IMG/VR virus record: IMGVR_UViG_2693429779_000006
Length of the DNA stretch: 22,225 bases
Strand: one strand, 5' to 3'
DNA from: a virus
Lineage: Duplodnaviria > Heunggongvirae > Uroviricota > Caudoviricetes
Part shown: piece after piece, positions 56 to 16,093 of the stretch
Layout of the letters: each line of letters begins with the position of its first letter
Position numbering within the stretch: the stretch's first letter is position 1
The notes under the pieces: model-generated
Told to the model about the DNA's origin: nothing
The model's database searches: none
Seen by the model: the letters and a program-made list of their open reading frames with translations, nothing else
Made by a program: the position numbers and the translations under genes

Positions 56-850
56 TCATAGAATAGGAGAGTAAATTTCCACCTCAGGGTAATAAGCTCT
101 AAGGTAATTTATAAGACCTTCATAAGCATTAAGAAGAGATATTTTATGTGAAATCAAATCTTGTTCTATTATCAGTGCTTTATCGGATGGTAGCTCATCA
201 TAATTGAAATGACAAAGAAGATTATGATTCGCACCACCAAACACCTGAATGTTTCTATTATCGGAAATCGGCAAATGTCCAGATATGATAAAATCAATAT
301 TTTTATACGAATCAATAAAACTTTGGAAATGACCGTGGAGTAATTTATCATTTAAAGGATAGCTCGCTGGAAAATCCCTTAAAATACTATCAAACTGATC
401 TCCAAAAATAAGAAGATTGATGTGAAAAGAATTAGGTAAAGTTTCAACTAATGAACGTACCCTCGCAAACGGTGTAAAGTGGAAGTAAGCGTTTAAAAAG
501 TCCACATCTGACTGTCTTTTTTTATCTGAAAATAATGTATTATCGGTTGCACCCTGTATATAAGCCTCATGTTCACTTTTGATTTGATGCAATTTTTCTA
601 CTGTATAAGTGAATGGATCTCTATCAACAAGAATATGATCATTTGCACAAAGCAGGATAAGATTTTCATAAGAATTGTCATTTGCTAACAGGTCATCGCC
701 CCTTGGTCCTTTTGGGCTTTTGGCTATTACATGAGCCATTTGTCCGATGTGAACCTGCTCTTTAAAAAGAGAAGTTCGGCAAATATTACATTGCCCAGCG
801 GATAGTCCATACAATTTTTTTATTGCTGCTGTAGTAATTGCATCACTCAT
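56..850 (-). CDS. HNH endonuclease-motif protein with an uncharacterised C-terminal domain of about 170 aa
   Basis: N-terminal 75 aa contain C-N-I-C, then AHVIAKSPKGPRG, then ENLILLCANDH, which fits the HNH/His-Me finger layout of zinc ligands, catalytic His and conserved Asn. AGGA sits 8 nt upstream of the ATG. The C-terminal region has no motif I recognise. Confidence 0.55.
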   Translation of the reverse strand: MSDAITTAAIKKLYGLSAGQCNICRTSLFKEQVHIGQMAHVIAKSPKGPRGDDLLANDNSYENLILLCANDHILVDRDPFTYTVEKLHQIKSEHEAYIQGATDNTLFSDKKRQSDVDFLNAYFHFTPFARVRSLVETLPNSFHINLLIFGDQFDSILRDFPASYPLNDKLLHGHFQSFIDSYKNIDFIISGHLPISDNRNIQVFGGANHNLLCHFNYDELPSDKALIIEQDLISHKISLLNAYEGLINYLRAYYPEVEIYSPIL

Positions 851-910: not shown

Positions 911-1204
911 TCAGCTTCCACCAACCATAATCAATAGCACTTGCAAAAGTTGTCCTAATGGAACTTGGATCACAATAATTCCAAAAGCATCAAGTACTGG
1001 TACTATGATCCAGTTATAGAGAATGATAAGGGTTAGTACAAAACCGAGGGCATTACGCCAGTGGAATGTTACCTTTTCAATCTCTTCTTTATTCGTTTCA
1101 ATCTGCCCTTCTACATTCGTTTTCTTTACTTCCTGTTCAATAGTTTTCTTCTTAATGAAAAAATCCAATCCTGACTTCAGAAACTCAATCAATATACTAA
1201 TCAT
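911..1204 (-). CDS. Small membrane protein with a charged N-terminal half and two predicted C-terminal TM helices
   Basis: Hydrophobic stretches ALGFVLTLIILYNWIIVPVL and GIIVIQVPLGQLLQVLLIMVGG at the C-terminus. Its start overlaps the stop of the upstream gene as ATGA. Confidence 0.45.
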   Translation of the reverse strand: MISILIEFLKSGLDFFIKKKTIEQEVKKTNVEGQIETNKEEIEKVTFHWRNALGFVLTLIILYNWIIVPVLDAFGIIVIQVPLGQLLQVLLIMVGGS

Positions 1205-2096: not shown

Positions 2097-2531
2097 TCAA
2101 TTCAAGTACTCCAATAGTTCCTGTACTATTCCGAGTAGTCTTTTTTTATCCTTTGCATTTGGTGATCTAATCTTACTCATCATTGCCAGATTCAAACATT
2201 CCGGTTTAAGCATCTGATGAAGGATCAGTATTGCCTCTACAATCATTACCTCTCGCATAGTTGCGAAGCACCATAGAATCGTTTTTGAGTACTGTTCACC
2301 ATTTTCAATTTTGTTTTTAACGACATTGGAACTACTGAGGTACTCACGCCAGCCATTTTCCTTTGAAGTGGGCTTTAGCTTTCTCGCATCCTTAACCCGC
2401 TGATAGATTTGCTTAGCACCGACATAATTAGAACCATCCTCAAACTGAAAGATATAAACGAAACCAGCATATTCACCGGATAACATTTCCTCCTCGCTCC
2501 AATCATCCGAGTATTTCCATTCACTCATCAT
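2097..2531 (-). CDS. GIY-YIG nuclease domain protein
   Basis: AGFVYIFQFEDGSNYVGAKQIYQRVKDAR matches the GIY...YIG...R core, with a downstream acidic residue in MREVMIVEAIL as the candidate catalytic Glu. AGGAA sits 6 nt upstream of the ATG. Confidence 0.55.
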   Translation of the reverse strand: MMSEWKYSDDWSEEEMLSGEYAGFVYIFQFEDGSNYVGAKQIYQRVKDARKLKPTSKENGWREYLSSSNVVKNKIENGEQYSKTILWCFATMREVMIVEAILILHQMLKPECLNLAMMSKIRSPNAKDKKRLLGIVQELLEYLN

Positions 2532-2538
2532 AAATATT

Positions 2539-2557
2539 CCTATAAATTCATTATAGG
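2539..2557. promoter_or_regulatory. Perfect 7-bp inverted repeat CCTATAA-N5-TTATAGG in the 36-bp divergent region between the GIY-YIG and lysozyme starts
   Basis: Read directly. Each half supplies an AGG Shine-Dalgarno-like element for one of the two divergent genes, so it may be an operator or an mRNA structure. Confidence 0.3.
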
Positions 2558-2567
2558 TATTTAGTAA

Positions 2568-3017
2568 ATGAGCGATTTAAAAACACGATTAAAAGAATAT
2601 GAAGGTACTAAAGAGTATCAGGCAAATTTGAAGTACTTCAGAAATGGGAAATTCTATCCATATGCTGATAGTTTAGGATGTAGTACTATTGGATATGGTC
2701 ACTTAATTCAGGCGGGAGAAGATTTTAGTACTGGCATTACTGAAAGCGAAGCAGACAAGTTACTATCTCGCGATTTAGCCAAAACAATTATGCAGGTACA
2801 GACATTAGGGTTAAATCTTCCCGATGACTGGAATGATTTTATTATTATCATGACCTTCCAGTTAGGTATTGGCGGGGTGAAGAAATTCCGTAAGATGTTA
2901 GCAGCCCTGAAAGCACATGATTACCTTGAAGCAATTAAACAGGCTAAGTGTTCTCTATGGTACAGGCAGACACCAAACCGTGTGAATTCCATGATTGCAG
3001 TACTTAAAAACAAATAA
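2568..3017 (+). CDS. GH24 (T4-type) lysozyme, putative endolysin
   Basis: Catalytic-region motifs in T4-lysozyme order: E in KEYEGT, D in PYADSLG, T in CSTIGYGH. No N-terminal hydrophobic signal or SAR segment. This is the only confidently coding plus-strand gene in the window. Confidence 0.8.
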   Translation: MSDLKTRLKEYEGTKEYQANLKYFRNGKFYPYADSLGCSTIGYGHLIQAGEDFSTGITESEADKLLSRDLAKTIMQVQTLGLNLPDDWNDFIIIMTFQLGIGGVKKFRKMLAALKAHDYLEAIKQAKCSLWYRQTPNRVNSMIAVLKNK

Positions 3018-3057
3018 AGAAAAGGCATAGTACGAATGACATACTATGCCTTTTTTT
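3016..3057. terminator. Bidirectional rho-independent terminator between the convergent lysozyme and 90-aa genes
   Basis: Stem GGCATAGTA / TACTATGCC with a 9-nt loop, preceded by AAAGAAAA and followed by TTTTTTT. Confidence 0.6.
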
Positions 3058-3328
3058 ATGGTCGTTGTTTCTGCTGAAGAATTGCAATAATCCTTTCAAT
3101 CTTAACATCAAGTTCATGGATTTGTGTTTCCAGTTTACTTAGTGTATCTCTCATCTTATCCTGATCATCCTCAATACGGGAAATACTACTTTCCAGTACA
3201 GCAATGGTAGTTTCAAGAGTAGCAACGCGAGTTAATAGATCATTCGTATCCTTTGTATTATCTCTAAAGATAGTATAAAGGAATACGCATCCAGAAATAA
3301 CAAGAGCTAAAATAGCACCGATATCCAT
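3056..3328 (-). CDS. Membrane-anchored coiled-coil protein; candidate lysis accessory (holin or i-spanin-like)
   Basis: N-terminal TM helix DIGAILALVISGCVFLYTIF followed by about 65 aa of heptad-like charged sequence. Convergent with the lysozyme gene. AAGGGA upstream of the ATG. Confidence 0.4.
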   Translation of the reverse strand: MDIGAILALVISGCVFLYTIFRDNTKDTNDLLTRVATLETTIAVLESSISRIEDDQDKMRDTLSKLETQIHELDVKIERIIAILQQKQRP

Positions 3329-3340
3329 ACTGAAATCCCT

Positions 3341-3385
3341 TTGTTGTTATTGTTATTGTTATTGTTATTGTTATTGTTATTGTAT
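3341..3385. repeat. Hexanucleotide simple sequence repeat, (TTGTTA)6 with degenerate flanking copies
   Basis: Six perfect TTGTTA units at 3344..3379 read directly, between the stop of the 218-aa gene (3385-3387) and the start of the 90-aa gene (3326-3328). It is out of frame with both genes. Confidence 0.9.
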
Positions 3386-4041
3386 TAATACCCTGTAAAT
3401 GTCGCCAATGCTATCTGGATACCATTATTCCCCATTGCCTGGCGGTAGGTTTTCTGGTTCTTTGAAACGTACTGTAGACTGAATGAAGTACTGGAATTAC
3501 GCCTGATAACCAGACCAGAGTACCCAATTACTGTACCATCATCTGATATGTTCCCCGGACATTGTGACCAGCAGAACCAGGGATCAGCTACTGGAGACGT
3601 TACCGTAATGGCAGTACTGAGATCGGTAGCCGCAGGTGCTGTCAAAAATCCCCTGATACGTGGCATTGTTGCCGCTGATGCAGCAGACCAGATTAAAGTA
3701 CCTTCTTCACTGAACACATCAAGAAAACCAGATGTGGGGGTAGCCGTGTGACTACTTGTCATGAACCTGCCCATGCCAGGCTGGAACATATAGGCACCAG
3801 GGAAACACCATGCCCCGTCTTTCTGTATCTGGAACCAGTACTGTGTTGTGTTCCTGTTAGCTACTACTGATGGCATAACGAAACCGAGCGATCCACCATT
3901 ACCGAAGGCACAGGTAAAGCCTGTGTAGTATCCCGTATCAGTTAGATTTCCCATGGCCTTTACTGCACCCGTCATTATCGACTTGTTAGTACTATCTATA
4001 GTCAGTGCACCCGCTGAATTATATACCTCGAAACCTGCCAT
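3385..4041 (-). CDS. Hypothetical protein downstream of the tail-tip gene, 218 aa
   Basis: Long ORF. N-terminus MAGFEVYNSAGALTIDSTNKSIMTG resembles the N-terminus of the adjacent 98-aa ORF. Gly/Ser/Thr-rich with several Cys and Trp. Confidence 0.5.
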   Translation of the reverse strand: MAGFEVYNSAGALTIDSTNKSIMTGAVKAMGNLTDTGYYTGFTCAFGNGGSLGFVMPSVVANRNTTQYWFQIQKDGAWCFPGAYMFQPGMGRFMTSSHTATPTSGFLDVFSEEGTLIWSAASAATMPRIRGFLTAPAATDLSTAITVTSPVADPWFCWSQCPGNISDDGTVIGYSGLVIRRNSSTSFSLQYVSKNQKTYRQAMGNNGIQIALATFTGY

Positions 4042-4042
4042 C

Positions 4043-4339
4043 TTACGCCGTCCACTTATATACGTTAAAAGTGTAGTTACCAGCTAACGGTGCATATGTT
4101 GGCAAATAAACCGCAGTAAATGACCCATTATTACAAAAGGCTGACCACTCATTAAAGGTATCACTGGCGGGGGCATAGTGTACAAACCAGCCTGTAGTTT
4201 TCATATTTGGTACTGATACAGTATAGGTCTGTGCAGAAGTAGCCTTGACAGTATAAGTACCCATAAAACGTATGTTATAATCAGTCAGATCTACTACTAA
4301 TACACCCGCTGCATTCCAACATTGTAATCCCTGTGCCAT
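4043..4339 (-). CDS. Hypothetical protein, 98 aa; short paralogue of the 218-aa neighbour
   Basis: N-terminus MAQGLQCWNAAGVLVVDLTDYNIRFMG parallels the neighbour. AGGAG sits about 8 nt upstream of the ATG. Confidence 0.5.
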   Translation of the reverse strand: MAQGLQCWNAAGVLVVDLTDYNIRFMGTYTVKATSAQTYTVSVPNMKTTGWFVHYAPASDTFNEWSAFCNNGSFTAVYLPTYAPLAGNYTFNVYKWTA

Positions 4340-4496
4340 AGCTCTTACTCCTGTAAATCCTTTTCTTCATTCCAATTGTTTCTTTTCCGCTAATACTGAA
4401 TGGGTTAGTACTGGTACTATTGAAAGTACGTTCATTAGATTTCATTTATGTATCCTTTTGAAATGAGGTTACAGTTAATAATCCCTGAATTATTTA

Positions 4497-8195
<3,699 letters not shown>

Positions 8196-9377: not shown

Positions 9378-9950
9378 TTGTTACCTCGAATATCTTCTTT
9401 CTTTATTTATTTAAAAACCTCGATTCGTATTTTTTTTAACAGGCTTGATTGGCAGGCTGCATCCGTCATCGTTGCTATGTTGTTATTTGCAGGCCAAATA
9501 GGCTATAACGCATATGATAAATGGAAAGAAAGTTCAGATGATGTTTTTAAGATGCGTGTAATCTTATTGAGCGAAATCAACAATAACCTTTTAGCTCTTG
9601 CTACTGGTGGCGATGAGTCTCAGGTGTTAGGCACATATGAAATATGTATTCCTCTTCCAACTGAAGATACAGAAGCTATTAAAAGAGTAGCAACTGCCGT
9701 TTCTTATTTGCATGATGATGTATATTATTCCCAATTAGAAAAATTAGCATCACTCCCAAAAAAAGAAGTAGATGCCATCGTAAAGAGTTATTATTCATTA
9801 TCGAGATTACGTACTCTTTCAACACAGCTTGCATACAATATTAAATACTCACCACCTAAAGTTAAATTATTGCGGGAAGAGTATTACAATCTCTATACCC
9901 TTTCATCTTCTCTTTCACAATATTTGTCTTATCACACGGAAAATCCCTAA
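9378..9950 (+). CDS. Opposite-strand insert (moron) in the tail operon: hypothetical protein with one predicted N-proximal TM helix
   Basis: A 190-codon open frame on the plus strand fills a 584-bp region that has no minus-strand ORF, in AT-rich DNA where long open frames are unlikely by chance. The track start is TTG; the first ATG is at 9477. TM candidate AASVIVAMLLFAGQIGYNAY. Confidence 0.4.
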   Translation: MLPRISSFFIYLKTSIRIFFNRLDWQAASVIVAMLLFAGQIGYNAYDKWKESSDDVFKMRVILLSEINNNLLALATGGDESQVLGTYEICIPLPTEDTEAIKRVATAVSYLHDDVYYSQLEKLASLPKKEVDAIVKSYYSLSRLRTLSTQLAYNIKYSPPKVKLLREEYYNLYTLSSSLSQYLSYHTENP

Positions 9951-9960
9951 CTGGGCTTTC

Positions 9961-12174
9961 TTATGTATTACGTTTTTGACTACTTCTCACAGCTTGAGAA
10001 ACACTATTGGCGTGTTTCTTAAGCATCTCATTAAATTTCTTGTCATCATCAGCTACATCACCCTGGATGATCAATGGTGCGTTAACGGTAATATCACCTG
10101 AAGTACTTCCACCTTCTTGTTTATCCAAGAATGCTGTTAATTTCTTATTCGCTTCAGGCTGCACCACTCTCTCGCCCTGCTTAAGTACAAATGATTTGTT
10201 GTCATAACTTGCTGGTAGTTCATCTACCCCGCCATGGAACTGACCAGCAGCAGCACCCTTTGCAGTACTAATAATCGACATACCAAGTGAAAGTACTTGT
10301 GCATAGTTTGCCAATGAAGCTGGCCAAGGGGTAGCGAGTGCTTGGGCCAATGCTGACTGAATTGAAAGTACTGTCTGTGCAATGCTTATGCTCTTACTTA
10401 GGGTAAATGCAGCTTGTGCAGCCCCACTACTTTCCCCAAACGCATCAACCATGCCCTGTGATAGTGACTGTGCAGTACTTGAGAAGATACTTAACTGATC
10501 CTGTGCATTCTGGTTACTGATTTGGATGGCCTGTGCATTGTACTTTGCCGTGATCTCAGCTTTACGTTTCTCATAGTCCTCATGGCCTTTCAGCAACAAC
10601 TCATTCTGCTGAAGTTCAGCATTCATAGCATCAGCGTTATCTTTCAACTTCTGATCGGTATCGTTATAGGCTAATGGATTACCACCATTGATACGCTGAT
10701 TCTGTTGCTGTGCCAGATACCCCTTCTGATTGTCATTGAGTAGACCGGAACCAATAAGAGCATTGGTATCTTTCAGACCCTGATTAGGATCTTGATAACC
10801 AACCATTGAATTCAGTAAATCAGTACGTTGTTTAGCACCATATGCAGTAGCGTTCTTTAGCATTTCATCAGGATTGATACCGAGTACTTGAGCACTATCG
10901 GTGATGGTTTTAAGAAGTGCCTTTTGTTGTCTGTCGAACTGCTGTAGACGTACCTGAAAACCATCTTCCCCAACTTGAGCAAGAGCAGCTTCCAGATTAC
11001 GTTGAGCCTGTAGGCGTTTTGCATCTGCCGCCTTTTGTGCCGCTTCTGCCTGTTTACGTTGTTGTTCTAACTTCTTCGCTGCATCTTCAGCTTCTTTTGC
11101 CTGATCAACCCATCCGCCAGTAGGAGCGGTAGCAACCGCAACATCGGACTTTAGGTTGTTTGCCAGTTCTTCTAAACGTGCCTTAGCCTGAGCGAACTCA
11201 TTACCCTTGTTGCCCTTATCATCCATGATGCCAGTATTGAGTGCTGCACCCTGGTAGTTTAATGCCCCTGCTGTACGTAATTTTTCCCAGATATCCAACA
11301 TATCCTGTAGAGAACCCTTGGAAGTTTTAATACGTTCATTCAGATCTTCAAACAAACCTGCCTCGTGAGGTTTTTGATTTGCAGCATCATAGACACTGTT
11401 CATGGCATTAACTAAAGGTGATAGGCCATCAGCAATAGTACCTTTAATGCTGGTAGTAAGTTTCCCAAGGTTTTTATCGAATTCAGCATATTTTTCAGCA
11501 GCATCATTAGTTACTTCAGCATTTTGTGACTGGATATAGGCTGTAGCTTGAGCCTCATTATTGAACTGCTGAAGAGTACTAATCATGTGGCTTGAGTCAC
11601 TGGCTAACGTTTCCATTACGTTAACTATTTCACTCTGTGATTTACCTGCATCACGCATGGCGTAAAAGGTGTGGATCACAGCCTGCATACCACCATCAGC
11701 CTGTTTTAAGTACTTGTTATAGTCCTGTAGGTTGAGTCCATATTCTTTAAGATCATCGGATACACCACCGCCAGCACGAAAAGCATCACCGAGCTTATCC
11801 AAGGTATCCTTGTTGAAATCACCAAACTTATCAATCTCAAGACCGAGGCCACTAAACGCCGCTGATAGCTGTTGTAACTGAACCACGGACAATCCGGTAC
11901 TCTTACTGATCTGGTTCATTTCACGCACATATTCACGTGATGATTCTACTAATGCTGCCAGGCCACCAATACCAATAGCCGCAGCACCCGCGATCCCGGT
12001 CATAGCAGTACCGAACCCGCCAGCCATACCAGTTATTCGGCCTGTGAACTCTTCAACAATGCCACCAGCAGTACTACCAAATTCCTCTAATGATTCAGTA
12101 CCAGACCTTAAAGCACGCTGTAAACCGGAAGAATCACCCGTAATATCTACACGTATTCTATTATTATTTGCCAT
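9961..12174 (-). CDS. Tail tape measure protein
   Basis: 737 aa, directly downstream of the G/GT chaperone pair. Gly/Ala-rich hydrophobic N-proximal segment, long Ala/Gln/Lys-rich helical regions, and a C-terminal region. Length implies a tail of roughly 110 nm at about 0.15 nm per residue. Confidence 0.8.
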   Translation of the reverse strand: MANNNRIRVDITGDSSGLQRALRSGTESLEEFGSTAGGIVEEFTGRITGMAGGFGTAMTGIAGAAAIGIGGLAALVESSREYVREMNQISKSTGLSVVQLQQLSAAFSGLGLEIDKFGDFNKDTLDKLGDAFRAGGGVSDDLKEYGLNLQDYNKYLKQADGGMQAVIHTFYAMRDAGKSQSEIVNVMETLASDSSHMISTLQQFNNEAQATAYIQSQNAEVTNDAAEKYAEFDKNLGKLTTSIKGTIADGLSPLVNAMNSVYDAANQKPHEAGLFEDLNERIKTSKGSLQDMLDIWEKLRTAGALNYQGAALNTGIMDDKGNKGNEFAQAKARLEELANNLKSDVAVATAPTGGWVDQAKEAEDAAKKLEQQRKQAEAAQKAADAKRLQAQRNLEAALAQVGEDGFQVRLQQFDRQQKALLKTITDSAQVLGINPDEMLKNATAYGAKQRTDLLNSMVGYQDPNQGLKDTNALIGSGLLNDNQKGYLAQQQNQRINGGNPLAYNDTDQKLKDNADAMNAELQQNELLLKGHEDYEKRKAEITAKYNAQAIQISNQNAQDQLSIFSSTAQSLSQGMVDAFGESSGAAQAAFTLSKSISIAQTVLSIQSALAQALATPWPASLANYAQVLSLGMSIISTAKGAAAGQFHGGVDELPASYDNKSFVLKQGERVVQPEANKKLTAFLDKQEGGSTSGDITVNAPLIIQGDVADDDKKFNEMLKKHANSVSQAVRSSQKRNT

Positions 12175-13441: not shown

Positions 13442-16093
13442 TTATTTATTATTTAATAGCTGTTGTACTAAATCTTTTAGCTGATTAATTTCTTCTTGTT
13501 GGGCTTGAATAGCTCCCATCAAGTCCATCACTATTGGATTTAAATCAACACGTGGATGATCACGAGTGACAATCTCCCCTTCTATTTCAACTGTTTCTTC
13601 ATCATGCTTAATGTACTGCGGAGCAGTCAACTCAGCATCTTCGGCGATAACACCAAACCTAACCCTTTCTTGTTCATCATCCTTGTAGATAAACGTTACT
13701 AAATCTTGTGACATTATCCGATCTAATGCTTCAACTGGATTTGCTGGAGTTATGTCTCTTTTAAACTCACGACCTGATGTACCTTGAGCTTGCATTACTA
13801 ACCATCCAAACCATGTTGTACCGTTCCCGCCTCGTACTCTTAAAGTACCACCACCGTCTATCTGAAGCTGAGAGCGATTTGCCCCTGGGTATCTTTGCAT
13901 GTGCAATAAAGGGGAATATTTTTCACTATAGTTAATACCTGAGTCACCTGGCCCTGCATACATACCGTTAAAGGTGATGGTATTGGCATCTGTCGGTCCC
14001 GAAACAGCGGTATTAGTCATCCATCCTGATTGAACATCAGTTAGGATCGTTCCAGTCGGCCCTTTTAGCCCCCATAGTTTATCCTCTGCACCATTTTCAG
14101 AAATAAAAAGGGTGAGATCAGCCTGTCCAGTCTGTCCCATCGTTTTACCAACCCGAAAACCACCAGATATTTCAGTTGATGTACCAATGTTGCATATCGA
14201 ACGAATACGCCCTCCAGTTACATAACTACCAATTGCCGTAGAGGAAGGGGAAGAAGCAATAACATCCCATTGAGGACTAACTGAAGTACGACTACTCAGC
14301 AAGTTTTCAACCCAGCGTTTGGTAGTCGCGTCAGAATCAGAGACAGGATCTCCTGCTAAAGAAGTTGCACCCGTAGGACGAATCGCAGGCCATAACTCAG
14401 CCTGAGTCTTAACACCAGTACCGCCCTGCGGAATTGCTAATGCTTTCCAGCCAGTGAAAGCACCCGCAATATATGTAGCTGAACCCCATTGCCCTCCATC
14501 ATAAACCACTAATGCAGCGGAAGAATCAGCGGATTTAATAGTTGTTAAATTACTACCTTGATTAAAGCGATCCACCTGAAAGTTTAGGCGAGCACTCAAA
14601 GCATCTGTAGCCCCTGTCCCCCCCTGACCTATACCTAAAGCAATCCATCCAGTACCAGTACTTGCACCCCATGCCCCGTTATCCTGAATTCGGATACGGT
14701 TAGTCAGGTCATTACTCATCAGATCGGTGTACGTAGCACCCTGAGTCAAACGGTTCACCTGTAGGTTAGTACGTGCTGTAGAGAGACTGGATAGATCAGA
14801 AAGGTTACTCGCTTTCTTCATGGAAGCGGAATCAAGGGAAGTAATACTGTCAGCTAAAGCCGTTACCTCTGCATCTACTTCATCCATTGAGTAAACAGCA
14901 AGGTTAATACGTGCTTCTTCCACGTCCCCCAGATCACTTAGATTACCTGCTATCGTAAGCTGGGCATCATCTGTAACCTTCCCTAAGCCAACATCAGTAC
15001 TGGTAAGTACTACATCCTCACTGAGTACATGACCGTTGACCATACGTGTATCAGGTACTGAACCTGTATCTTCACTACTCAGTACTACATTTTCACTAAG
15101 TACATGACCGTTCACTGTACGCGTGTCAGGTACTGAACCTGTATCTTCACTACTCAGTACTATATCTTCACTGAGTACATGACCATTAACTGTCCGTGTA
15201 TCTGGTACAGAGCCGGTATCAGTACTGGTAAGTACTACATCCTCACTTAGAGGCTTACCATTCACAGTACGTGTATCAGGTACTGAACCTGTATCTTCAC
15301 TGTTCAGTACTAAATTGGCCGTGAGTGCATGGCCGTTGATGGTACGTGTAAGGGGTACGTATCGCCCGTCCATCTGTGTAGCGGTATATATGCGTGTCCA
15401 GGCGGTTGTAGCGTTCTTTGCATAGATACTTAGAGTACCCGTCTTTGTCATCGCAAGAGAACTTACAGTAGTGCCATCTACAAGCCCTACTCCCATCAGA
15501 TCCGCCCCGGCAGGATTGCCTGCTTGAGATGATGGTACTTTGATGAAGCTGTTACCCGTAGGTACTGATGGTGAGTACTGAGGTACATCCGTAGTGTTCG
15601 AACCTAAACCGTAGTCCCCCTGATAGATTGGCGATAGTGCGTTAATGGTCATTGCACGTGCGATCACATCATGTGGGGCAAAACTGTATGCCTTGGTTAC
15701 TACTGAACCTTTATCACCGTCCAACTTATAAGAGGTGATATAACCATTCACCATCGCATAAGTAATGGTATTTTCATCCTTATTCATCTGGTACTGAATG
15801 ATGATCTGGAAAAGCTGCTGAGACTTAGCGGCATTATCCAAGAATTGATGTGTAGGATCATCAGGTAGGTAGTTAACTACAATATCAAATGGTGCTACTG
15901 ATTTATCAGATAGTAGTACTGTCCTGTAATCACTATCATACGTTTCAAAATTATTTGCTTCTGAATTTATTGTTAAGGTTGGAAAAGTATTAATCTGTTT
16001 AATTACTACATTGCCTGCTCCCTGTGGTGTTCTGTTACCAATATCAGCATTATACTGTACTGATAATTCTCTTCCTGAGAAAATATCACTCAT
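13442..16093 (-). CDS. Chimeric tail protein: tail-tube-like N-domain, tandem tail-fibre repeats and a C-terminal S74-type intramolecular chaperone domain
   Basis: aa 1-150 are paralogous to the 157-aa major tail protein. aa 249-368 hold five 25-aa repeats (TRTVNGHVLSEDVVLSSEDTGSVPD). The C-terminus reads FKRDITP...ALDRIMSQDLVTFIYKDD...RFGVIAEDAELTAP, resembling the self-cleaving chaperone domain of tail fibres and tailspikes, and ends in a coiled coil. Confidence 0.65.
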   Translation of the reverse strand: MSDIFSGRELSVQYNADIGNRTPQGAGNVVIKQINTFPTLTINSEANNFETYDSDYRTVLLSDKSVAPFDIVVNYLPDDPTHQFLDNAAKSQQLFQIIIQYQMNKDENTITYAMVNGYITSYKLDGDKGSVVTKAYSFAPHDVIARAMTINALSPIYQGDYGLGSNTTDVPQYSPSVPTGNSFIKVPSSQAGNPAGADLMGVGLVDGTTVSSLAMTKTGTLSIYAKNATTAWTRIYTATQMDGRYVPLTRTINGHALTANLVLNSEDTGSVPDTRTVNGKPLSEDVVLTSTDTGSVPDTRTVNGHVLSEDIVLSSEDTGSVPDTRTVNGHVLSENVVLSSEDTGSVPDTRMVNGHVLSEDVVLTSTDVGLGKVTDDAQLTIAGNLSDLGDVEEARINLAVYSMDEVDAEVTALADSITSLDSASMKKASNLSDLSSLSTARTNLQVNRLTQGATYTDLMSNDLTNRIRIQDNGAWGASTGTGWIALGIGQGGTGATDALSARLNFQVDRFNQGSNLTTIKSADSSAALVVYDGGQWGSATYIAGAFTGWKALAIPQGGTGVKTQAELWPAIRPTGATSLAGDPVSDSDATTKRWVENLLSSRTSVSPQWDVIASSPSSTAIGSYVTGGRIRSICNIGTSTEISGGFRVGKTMGQTGQADLTLFISENGAEDKLWGLKGPTGTILTDVQSGWMTNTAVSGPTDANTITFNGMYAGPGDSGINYSEKYSPLLHMQRYPGANRSQLQIDGGGTLRVRGGNGTTWFGWLVMQAQGTSGREFKRDITPANPVEALDRIMSQDLVTFIYKDDEQERVRFGVIAEDAELTAPQYIKHDEETVEIEGEIVTRDHPRVDLNPIVMDLMGAIQAQQEEINQLKDLVQQLLNNK
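14990..15349 (-). repeat. Tandem 75-bp coding repeats (about 5 copies) inside the 883-aa gene
   Basis: Near-identical DNA units are visible directly, for example ...tcactgagtacatgaccgtt...acgtgtatcaggtactgaacctgtatcttcactactcagtact..., each encoding one 25-aa repeat. Confidence 0.85.

Follow-up and report, generated by a model that had tools for sequence, protein, structure and literature searches.

The closest described counterparts of the repeat analysed here are STTR6, an intergenic 6-bp VNTR in the prophage Gifsy-1 of Salmonella Typhimurium in which mid-range copy numbers predominate (PMC3901673, PMC5183578), and the Shigella sonnei MLVA loci SS1-SS26, which have units of 5-9 bp and 2-34 copies (Liang et al. 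2007; PMC3310650). A repeat with a demonstrated effect on expression is represented by (AGAT)n of Moraxella catarrhalis uspA2, with 6-23 copies and number-dependent expression (Attia and Hansen 2006, as cited in PMC4679880). In addition, several types of single-stranded RNA elements are relevant for the comparison, namely, the (A-R-N)n or AAYAAYAA binding sites of Hfq, the CA motifs of CrcZ, and ribosome standby sites along with the AU- and CA-rich translational enhancers.

The window, that is, the entire stretch of 22,225 nucleotides that was analysed, is a lambdoid prophage of S. sonnei with a GC content of 39%. The host is identified as S. sonnei because the 90-aa and 218-aa proteins encoded on the two sides of the repeat are found, in identical form, on hundreds of S. 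sonnei contigs, including the chromosome HE616528. The locus comprises the following elements:

Positions 3344..3383, minus strand: hexanucleotide array, (TTGTTA)6.7 on the plus strand and UAC-(AAUAAC)6-AAC in the mRNA sense, delineated by Tandem Repeats Finder (TRF), shuffles and copy-number polymorphism.
Positions 3329..3345, minus strand: invariant 17-nt stretch from the array to the ATG, AACAAAGGGATTTCAGT.
Positions 3342..3336, minus strand: Shine-Dalgarno (SD)-like AAAGGGA, between the array and the ATG of the 90-aa gene.
Positions 3056..3328, minus strand: 90-aa gene, which closes the late/tail transcription unit; its product has a hydrophobic helix at the N-terminus, followed by a coiled coil.
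Positions 3385..4041, minus strand: 218-aa gene, phrog_4524, with DUF8377 among the precomputed Pfam hits.
Positions 4497..7799: J-like tail-tip gene, in the same transcription unit as the 98-aa, 218-aa and 90-aa genes.
Positions 3020..3054, minus strand: intrinsic terminator with a 15-bp stem and a T-run, located immediately behind the 90-aa gene.
Positions 3379..3408, minus strand: candidate sigma-70 promoter with the -35 element TTGGCG, an 18-nt spacer and the -10 element TACAAT, a chance-level match to the consensus.

The TTGTTA array is real and non-random. TRF reports a period of 6, 6.7 copies of the consensus TTGTTA with 100% matches and no indels, and a score of 80, and no other short-period repeat in the 22-kb window scores above 33. 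The longest perfect period-6 run in the window is 40 bp, whereas such runs average 13.3 bp and do not exceed 17 bp in 300 shuffles that preserve dinucleotide composition, so that the original prediction of a perfect TTGTTA repeat upstream of the 90-aa gene is borne out. Both flanking genes are located on the minus strand, and the array unit in the mRNA sense is AATAAC (or TAACAA), with the perfect units occupying positions 3381..3346. The minus strand around the array reads ...ACA GGG TAT TAA, the end of the 218-aa gene, then TAC (AATAAC)6 AAC AAAGGGA TTTCAGT, and then ATG GAT ATC..., the beginning of the 90-aa gene; the mRNA from the stop codon to the start codon is UAA-UAC-(AAUAAC)6-AACAAAGGGAUUUCAGU-AUG. 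The TAA stop codon of the 218-aa gene (3385..3387) thus lies 3 nt upstream of the first AATAAC unit, and the array occupies the interval between this stop and the start of the 90-aa gene (ATG, 3328..3326), 5' of the SD. This interval spans 56 nt (3329..3384) rather than the 58 bp given initially. The distance of about 12 bp between the repeat and the ATG holds if the partial unit AACAA is counted as part of the array, but from the last full AATAAC the distance is 17 nt. Similarly, the degenerate copies that had been described amount, in the window, to partial units at the two ends, but a true variant unit, AAAAAC, which is absent from the allele of the window, is found at the 5' end of the array in other alleles. 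The array follows the UAA stop and does not share the reading frame of the ATG downstream. A coding role of the array is rejected given that no open reading frame (ORF) of at least 20 aa crosses it on either strand.

We compared the array interval in 17 independent S. sonnei-type assemblies as well as in relatives. The S. sonnei-type alleles take two forms, TAC-(AATAAC)n, with n = 5, 6, 7 and 8, and TAC-AAAAAC-(AATAAC)n, with n = 6, 7, 8 and 10, and at least nine array alleles are present in the 17 assemblies on an invariant background. Finished chromosomes differ as well: HE616528 has 5 units, CP026802 has AAAAAC followed by 6 units, and CP179990 has AAAAAC followed by 10 units. Every difference in spacer length between alleles is a multiple of 6, that is, consists of whole units. 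Across 5.9 kb of flanking sequence (2.9 kb on the left and 3 kb on the right), alleles with 5 to 10 units are separated by 0-1 SNP, the flanks being either identical or one mismatch and one indel apart. Perfect head-to-tail units beyond the chance expectation, together with whole-unit differences between constant flanks, define a VNTR, and the array is a hypermutable hexanucleotide VNTR, or microsatellite. The gain or loss of units that the original prediction had envisaged is accordingly seen among related genomes. One contig with 7 units recurs in at least 20 samples, which implies that the tract is stable over short epidemiological time, like known VNTRs.

Like STTR6, this locus is a non-coding VNTR with a hexanucleotide unit, carried by a lambdoid prophage that resides in an enterobacterial pathogen, but the phage, the sequence and the neighbouring genes are different from those of STTR6 and Gifsy-1. 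The similarity to the S. sonnei MLVA loci consists in short units (6 bp in six loci), perfect head-to-tail arrays and high allelic diversity in a very clonal species; the same source records null alleles at some of these loci, as expected on mobile elements. With up to 2 mismatches allowed, the 22-kb window and the compared loci contain none of the forward primers of seven MLVA loci (SS1, 3, 6, 9, 10, 11 and 13; sequences from PMC3420240). The remaining 6-bp loci, SS15 and SS17, have only 2-4 copies, compared to 5-11 in the array described here. As far as the primers of these seven commonly used loci, out of 26, can show, the locus appears to lie outside the MLVA26 scheme. A literature search with the unit sequence in combination with VNTR or Shigella retrieved no paper containing this sequence. 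A highly polymorphic 6-bp VNTR, seemingly outside the commonly used MLVA loci, could sharpen the typing of S. sonnei.

Among repeats with an effect on expression, the AGAT repeat in the 5' UTR of uspA2 seems, by analogy, to be the nearest precedent for the array as a possible regulator. In uspA2, as in uspA1 with its poly-G tract, the repeat is located between the transcription start and the start codon, as may be the case here, and the copy number is strain-dependent with a graded rather than a frameshift effect (cited in PMC4679880). In that system, however, an experimental expression effect is established for a surface virulence protein, whereas here the repeat precedes a late gene of a prophage with a candidate promoter only. 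The resemblance to the Hfq sites and to the CA motifs of CrcZ lies in a run of AAY triplets that is predicted to be single-stranded and adjoins the ribosome binding site; known Hfq sites, however, consist of 2-6 triplets and are not hypermutable arrays. As in ribosome standby sites and AU- or CA-rich enhancers, a tract rich in A, C and U, predicted here to be unstructured, is located immediately 5' of the SD. Unlike the synthetic CA and AU tails (PMC5934652), which were placed at the 5' ends of engineered mRNAs with a strongly structured site, the tract analysed here is intercistronic and precedes a start site that is predicted to be only moderately structured.

Relatives of the prophage suggest how the array originated. 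The copy in an E. coli-like host (L010/L026), which is the same prophage at the same chromosomal site with flanks 0.5-0.8% diverged, has TATAAATAC-AAAAAC-(AATAAC)2, and the 95-96% identical prophages from Kosakonia, Enterobacter and gut metagenomes have TATAAATAC-AAAAAC-AATAAC, with one unit. Relatives at 74-87% protein identity are without the hexamer array and have AAT/AAY-rich leaders just 5' of the SD, one of these containing (AAT)5. This group includes Pluralibacter gergoviae and Scandinavium lactucae, the sources of the only two relatives, both distant and devoid of the array, that came out of a scan of the GTDB genomes. In sequence comparison, the series of 1, 2 and 5-11 units reads as a textbook case of microsatellite birth by slippage followed by hypermutability. 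The ancestral leader would have been A-rich, with one AATAAC followed by AAC, a state that appears to persist in the prophages from Kosakonia, Enterobacter and gut metagenomes. The S. sonnei tract would then have exceeded the length at which slippage becomes frequent and now seems to drift by whole units within a range of 5 to about 11, the surrounding sequence being otherwise invariant, with replication slippage as the presumable mechanism of unit change. Thus, the locus would show the birth of a microsatellite stepwise in the leader of a prophage gene, from 1 unit in other hosts through 2 in the E. coli-like host to 5-11 in S. sonnei. The sizes observed in the 17 assemblies, all within 5-11 units, could reflect either mutation bias or selection.

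The sequence next to the start codon differs between these groups as well. Alleles with at least two units, that is, those of S. sonnei and the 2-unit L010/L026, have AAAGGGATTTCAGT before the ATG, and the one-unit relatives (L002, L006, L007, L009 and L020 were compared) have AAAGAGGTTCCAGT, which contains the better SD: AAAGAGG (AGAGG) in the one-unit relatives versus the weaker AAGGGA in the expanded alleles. On sequence grounds, the pairing of expanded alleles with a weaker SD could represent compensation. The S. sonnei alleles have lost the 6-bp TAAATA that follows the stop codon and belongs to a motif, ATAAATA, shared by most relatives. In all relatives, the leader is rich in A and has AAY triplets directly 5' of the SD, which hints that A-rich AAY leaders are a functional sequence class, e.g., a translational enhancer, the length of which could matter.

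The prophage adjoins the host genes mipA, gapA and msrB. Megablast searches with the region against the INPHARED phages and 5,426 complete E. coli genomes yielded no match, and a tblastn search of phages with the 90-aa protein found nothing. The relatives of the 218-aa protein among phages, at 33-45% identity only, are from siphoviruses of E. coli and Klebsiella. HK639-like phages also have the 98-aa and 218-aa genes as a pair behind the J-like gene but are without the 90-aa gene. In different S. sonnei genomes, IS elements break the tape-measure gene, the 90-aa gene and the J-like gene, the latter in four different arrangements. In GCA_026013135.1, the IS lies within the 90-aa gene, 64 nt past the array, and a contig present in seven samples has its break very near this position. 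The prophage is repeatedly being inactivated in S. sonnei. These insertions, which are independent and carry rve-family transposases, lie in the tail region of five S. sonnei genomes (L024, L025, L027, L028 and L029); in the copy in the window, these genes are intact. The window and the commonest contig both retain intact tail genes, so the late region is not dead in every strain. The IS insertions in late genes nevertheless point to relaxed selection on the late region, which favours near-neutral drift of the array. Near the end of the prophage, adjoining mipA, positions 56..850 (minus strand) encode a 264-aa protein with an N-terminal HNH nuclease domain that matches CBASS-type effector models of PADLOC (SAVED_HNH, E = 4e-23; PDC-M68A, E = 2e-21) and may be a prophage-borne defence or accessory gene, although partner genes were not identified.

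The 90-aa gene product contains hydrophobic residues 3-21 followed by heptad-like repeats, in accord with the original assignment as a membrane-anchored coiled coil. Searches of this protein against Pfam, PHROGs, NCBIfam and PADLOC gave only sub-threshold generic coiled-coil matches. A precomputed match to DUF2730 is weak, and this family is absent from the best 25 of the 42 Pfam families (E up to 1) for the protein. The match to the Rz-like phrog_739 is weak as well (E = 2.7e-5), and an interpretation of the gene as a spanin (Rz/Rz1) was rejected because the embedded and adjacent ORFs are without an N-terminal lipobox, that is, there is no o-spanin. The terminator at 3054..3020 is the sole terminator-like site within 2500-4600, with none between the J-like and 90-aa genes; given this strong terminator and the lack of another up to the J-like gene, the 90-aa gene is the last cistron of the unit. 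The terminator is common to the 90-aa gene and the convergent lysozyme gene 2568..3017 (plus strand). The lone lysozyme gene is oriented opposite to all neighbouring genes, with a bidirectional terminator common with the 90-aa gene, and is back-to-back with a gene for a GIY-YIG SegE-like homing endonuclease (2097..2531, minus strand); a weak holin-like 97-aa gene (911..1204) is located about 1.4 kb from the lysozyme gene. The array presumably is part of a transcribed leader, either from the candidate promoter or from the late promoter. The TTGGCG-18-TACAAT pair ends just upstream of the array, at its 5' edge, and promoter-like matches in the region number 6 versus 7.3 expected in shuffles. A similar promoter-like arrangement is found at the same place in relatives, with the -35 element in conserved codons and the -10 element in the AT-rich spacer. 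If the TTGGCG/TACAAT promoter is real, the array would constitute almost the entire 5' UTR.

To assess the effect of unit number on the RNA, we folded the mRNA context, in which the array, with n = 0-14, was flanked by 132 nt on the upstream side and 95 nt on the downstream side. According to the prediction, the array is unpaired (p about 0.93), and the AUG is about 65% paired in the 260-nt context. The predicted energy of opening the region from -15 to +15 is 10.3 kcal/mol for n=1, 8.6 for n=6 and 8.3 for n=12, and the predicted probability of the SD and AUG being unpaired hardly varies with unit number. A structured RNA at the array was rejected: the predicted stability of the local fold, over 101 nt, does not exceed that of shuffled sequences (z = 0.3), and the Rfam scan gave nothing above the gathering score. 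Because the SD sits between the array and the ATG, unit changes cannot alter the SD-AUG spacing. The folding predicts that unit number has, at most, a mild, saturating, graded effect, and no switch.

We consider it probable that the array is a VNTR made by slippage and near-neutral, located in the leader, A-rich and non-coding, that precedes the last late gene in the S. sonnei prophage. The variation of the array in S. sonnei is most likely near-neutral given that the late region of the prophage is decaying. Under this explanation, the array would be carried on the late polycistronic mRNA, and possibly also on a transcript from the weak promoter at its 5' edge, where it would separate the 218-aa stop codon from the SD of the 90-aa gene as an unstructured (AAY)n spacer. 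Because the array is located upstream of the SD and falls neither within an ORF nor within a promoter spacer, unit changes cannot switch the gene on or off. Contingency, or phase variation, had been proposed in the original prediction, and of this proposal, the hypermutable tract in the 5' leader of the 90-aa gene stands; the geometry of a switch is absent, as this would call for a tract within an ORF and a unit length not divisible by 3, a tract between the -35 and -10 elements, or another location where a single unit flips expression, whereas the unit here is 6 nt long and outside any ORF. Graded effects could nevertheless arise by several routes. The distance relevant for termination-reinitiation coupling may change, with the stop-to-AUG interval growing from 38 to 86 nt, and a longer interval should weaken coupling; the array may insulate the start site from upstream structure; or its length may set the size of the single-stranded region on which Hfq or ribosomal protein S1 could dock. 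Should translation be tuned by unit number, the locus would offer a simple system, provided by nature, to study the length of (AAY)n leaders via S1, standby or Hfq; if it has no effect, this is an ordinary neutral VNTR in a decaying prophage.

A more active role of the array, although unlikely in our assessment, would be that of a translational rheostat, in which the array acts via ribosome standby or S1 as a docking platform for the 30S subunit 5' of a weak SD and a partly paired AUG, so that more units yield more of the 90-aa protein and slippage generates heritable, graded expression variants, i.e., a contingency locus of the 'volume-control' type. Such a role is consistent with the predicted single-stranded state of the array, which abuts the SD, with the predicted pairing of the AUG (about 65%) and an opening energy of 8-10 kcal/mol that falls monotonically with n, with the A-rich AAY leaders in all relatives, and with the weaker SD in the expanded alleles. 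Moreover, in E. coli, translation from structured ribosome binding sites increases strongly as 5' tails of AU or CA repeats become longer (PMC5934652), and a precedent exists in the AGAT repeat of the Moraxella uspA2 5' UTR, with 6-23 copies and number-dependent expression (cited in PMC4679880). The predicted effect is small, however, about 2 kcal/mol and saturating by about 6 units, and the 90-aa gene is dispensable, being IS-disrupted in some strains. The standby/S1 and Hfq models predict opposite effects of unit number. In the Hfq model, which the sequence makes conceivable but which we regard as rather improbable, the array would load one to three Hfq hexamers by the SD, their number being set by the units, and would either repress translation of the 90-aa protein or, under strong transcription of the late operon, sequester host Hfq in the manner of CrcZ in Pseudomonas. 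The array RNA is an uninterrupted run of 14 A-R-N triplets, i.e., concatenated AAYAAYAA, a motif that is enriched in the E. coli genomic SELEX for Hfq, is bound with low-nanomolar affinity and is footprinted by Hfq (PMC2887942), and the array is predicted to be unpaired, as required for binding to the distal face of Hfq. Furthermore, 12 of the 33 AAYAAYAA matches in the window (overlapping matches included) lie inside the array, the chance expectation for the whole window being 9.3 +/- 3.1, and CrcZ is the only Rfam family near the region (25.2 bits, E = 1e-4, minus strand 3302..3383). This is, however, a resemblance in sequence that any (AAT/AAC)n microsatellite would display; the remaining AAYAAYAA matches of the window are mostly ordinary TAA-containing gene junctions; and the one-unit ancestral leader works without an array. 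The CrcZ (RF01675) score of 25.2 bits is far under the gathering score of 95, so the array is not a CrcZ homologue and the likeness is compositional, reflecting A-rich CA motifs. We likewise assign a low probability to the broader notion that the array could be a hypermutable RNA-protein docking site, in which the count of AAY triplets would set the number of contacts with Hfq hexamers or with S1/30S beside the ribosome binding site. If this were true, the array would provide heritable, stepwise 'volume control' of the translation of a membrane protein or a variable Hfq sponge in late transcription. To our knowledge, a microsatellite acting via Hfq or standby binding has not been described so far.

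Classical phase variation, in which units would alter the spacing of promoter elements or between an activator and the promoter and so switch transcription of the 90-aa gene on and off, is very unlikely. The hypermutability of the array and the promoter-like pair at its 5' edge fit such a model, as does a second, weaker pair, TTAATA-16-AACAAT, with the -10 hexamer inside the array. However, the TTGGCG-18-TACAAT pair, the best of the promoter-like pairs and itself at chance level, lies wholly upstream of the array, so that its spacing is constant with n, in disagreement with the original prediction of altered promoter spacing. Because the array begins at a fixed place, the -10 element of the weaker pair is regenerated at the same distance in every allele, and the promoter-like matches in the region do not exceed the expectation from shuffles (6 versus 7.3). 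A 6-bp step would also rotate the helix by ~200 degrees and so produce alternating effects, yet alleles of both parities are common. A promoter-spacing switch is rejected on this geometry. The probability that the length differences are a sequencing or assembly artefact, i.e., short-read errors in a low-complexity tract, is practically negligible. Some draft contigs do end at or near the locus (L032 and L038), but the contig break in L032 is close to the IS insertion site of L028. The arrays, at 30-66 bp, are shorter than a single read, so the length variation is not generated by assembly; the three finished chromosomes have three different alleles; the same allele recurs in independent samples; and the changes always involve whole units. 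In practical terms, the array is a place where short-read pipelines may miscall indels.

Several other features of the window deserve mention. A sub-threshold Rfam match to the Salmonella sRNA STnc40 at 2983..3056 (plus strand), with 27 bits versus the gathering score of 45, covers the bidirectional terminator together with the 3' end of the lysozyme gene and is probably just the terminator hairpin. A 190-aa ORF that starts with TTG (9378..9950, plus strand) is inserted on the opposite strand where the tape-measure gene (9961..12174) adjoins the next tail gene; this ORF is called in all related contigs, has no family match and may be a moron. Finally, the 883-aa gene at 13442..16093 (minus strand), which contains a Peptidase_S74 domain and probably encodes a fibre or spike, is unusually located upstream of the major tail protein gene and harbours, at 15006..15350, an in-frame tandem repeat of 75 bp (25 codons) with 4.1 copies of about 80% identity.
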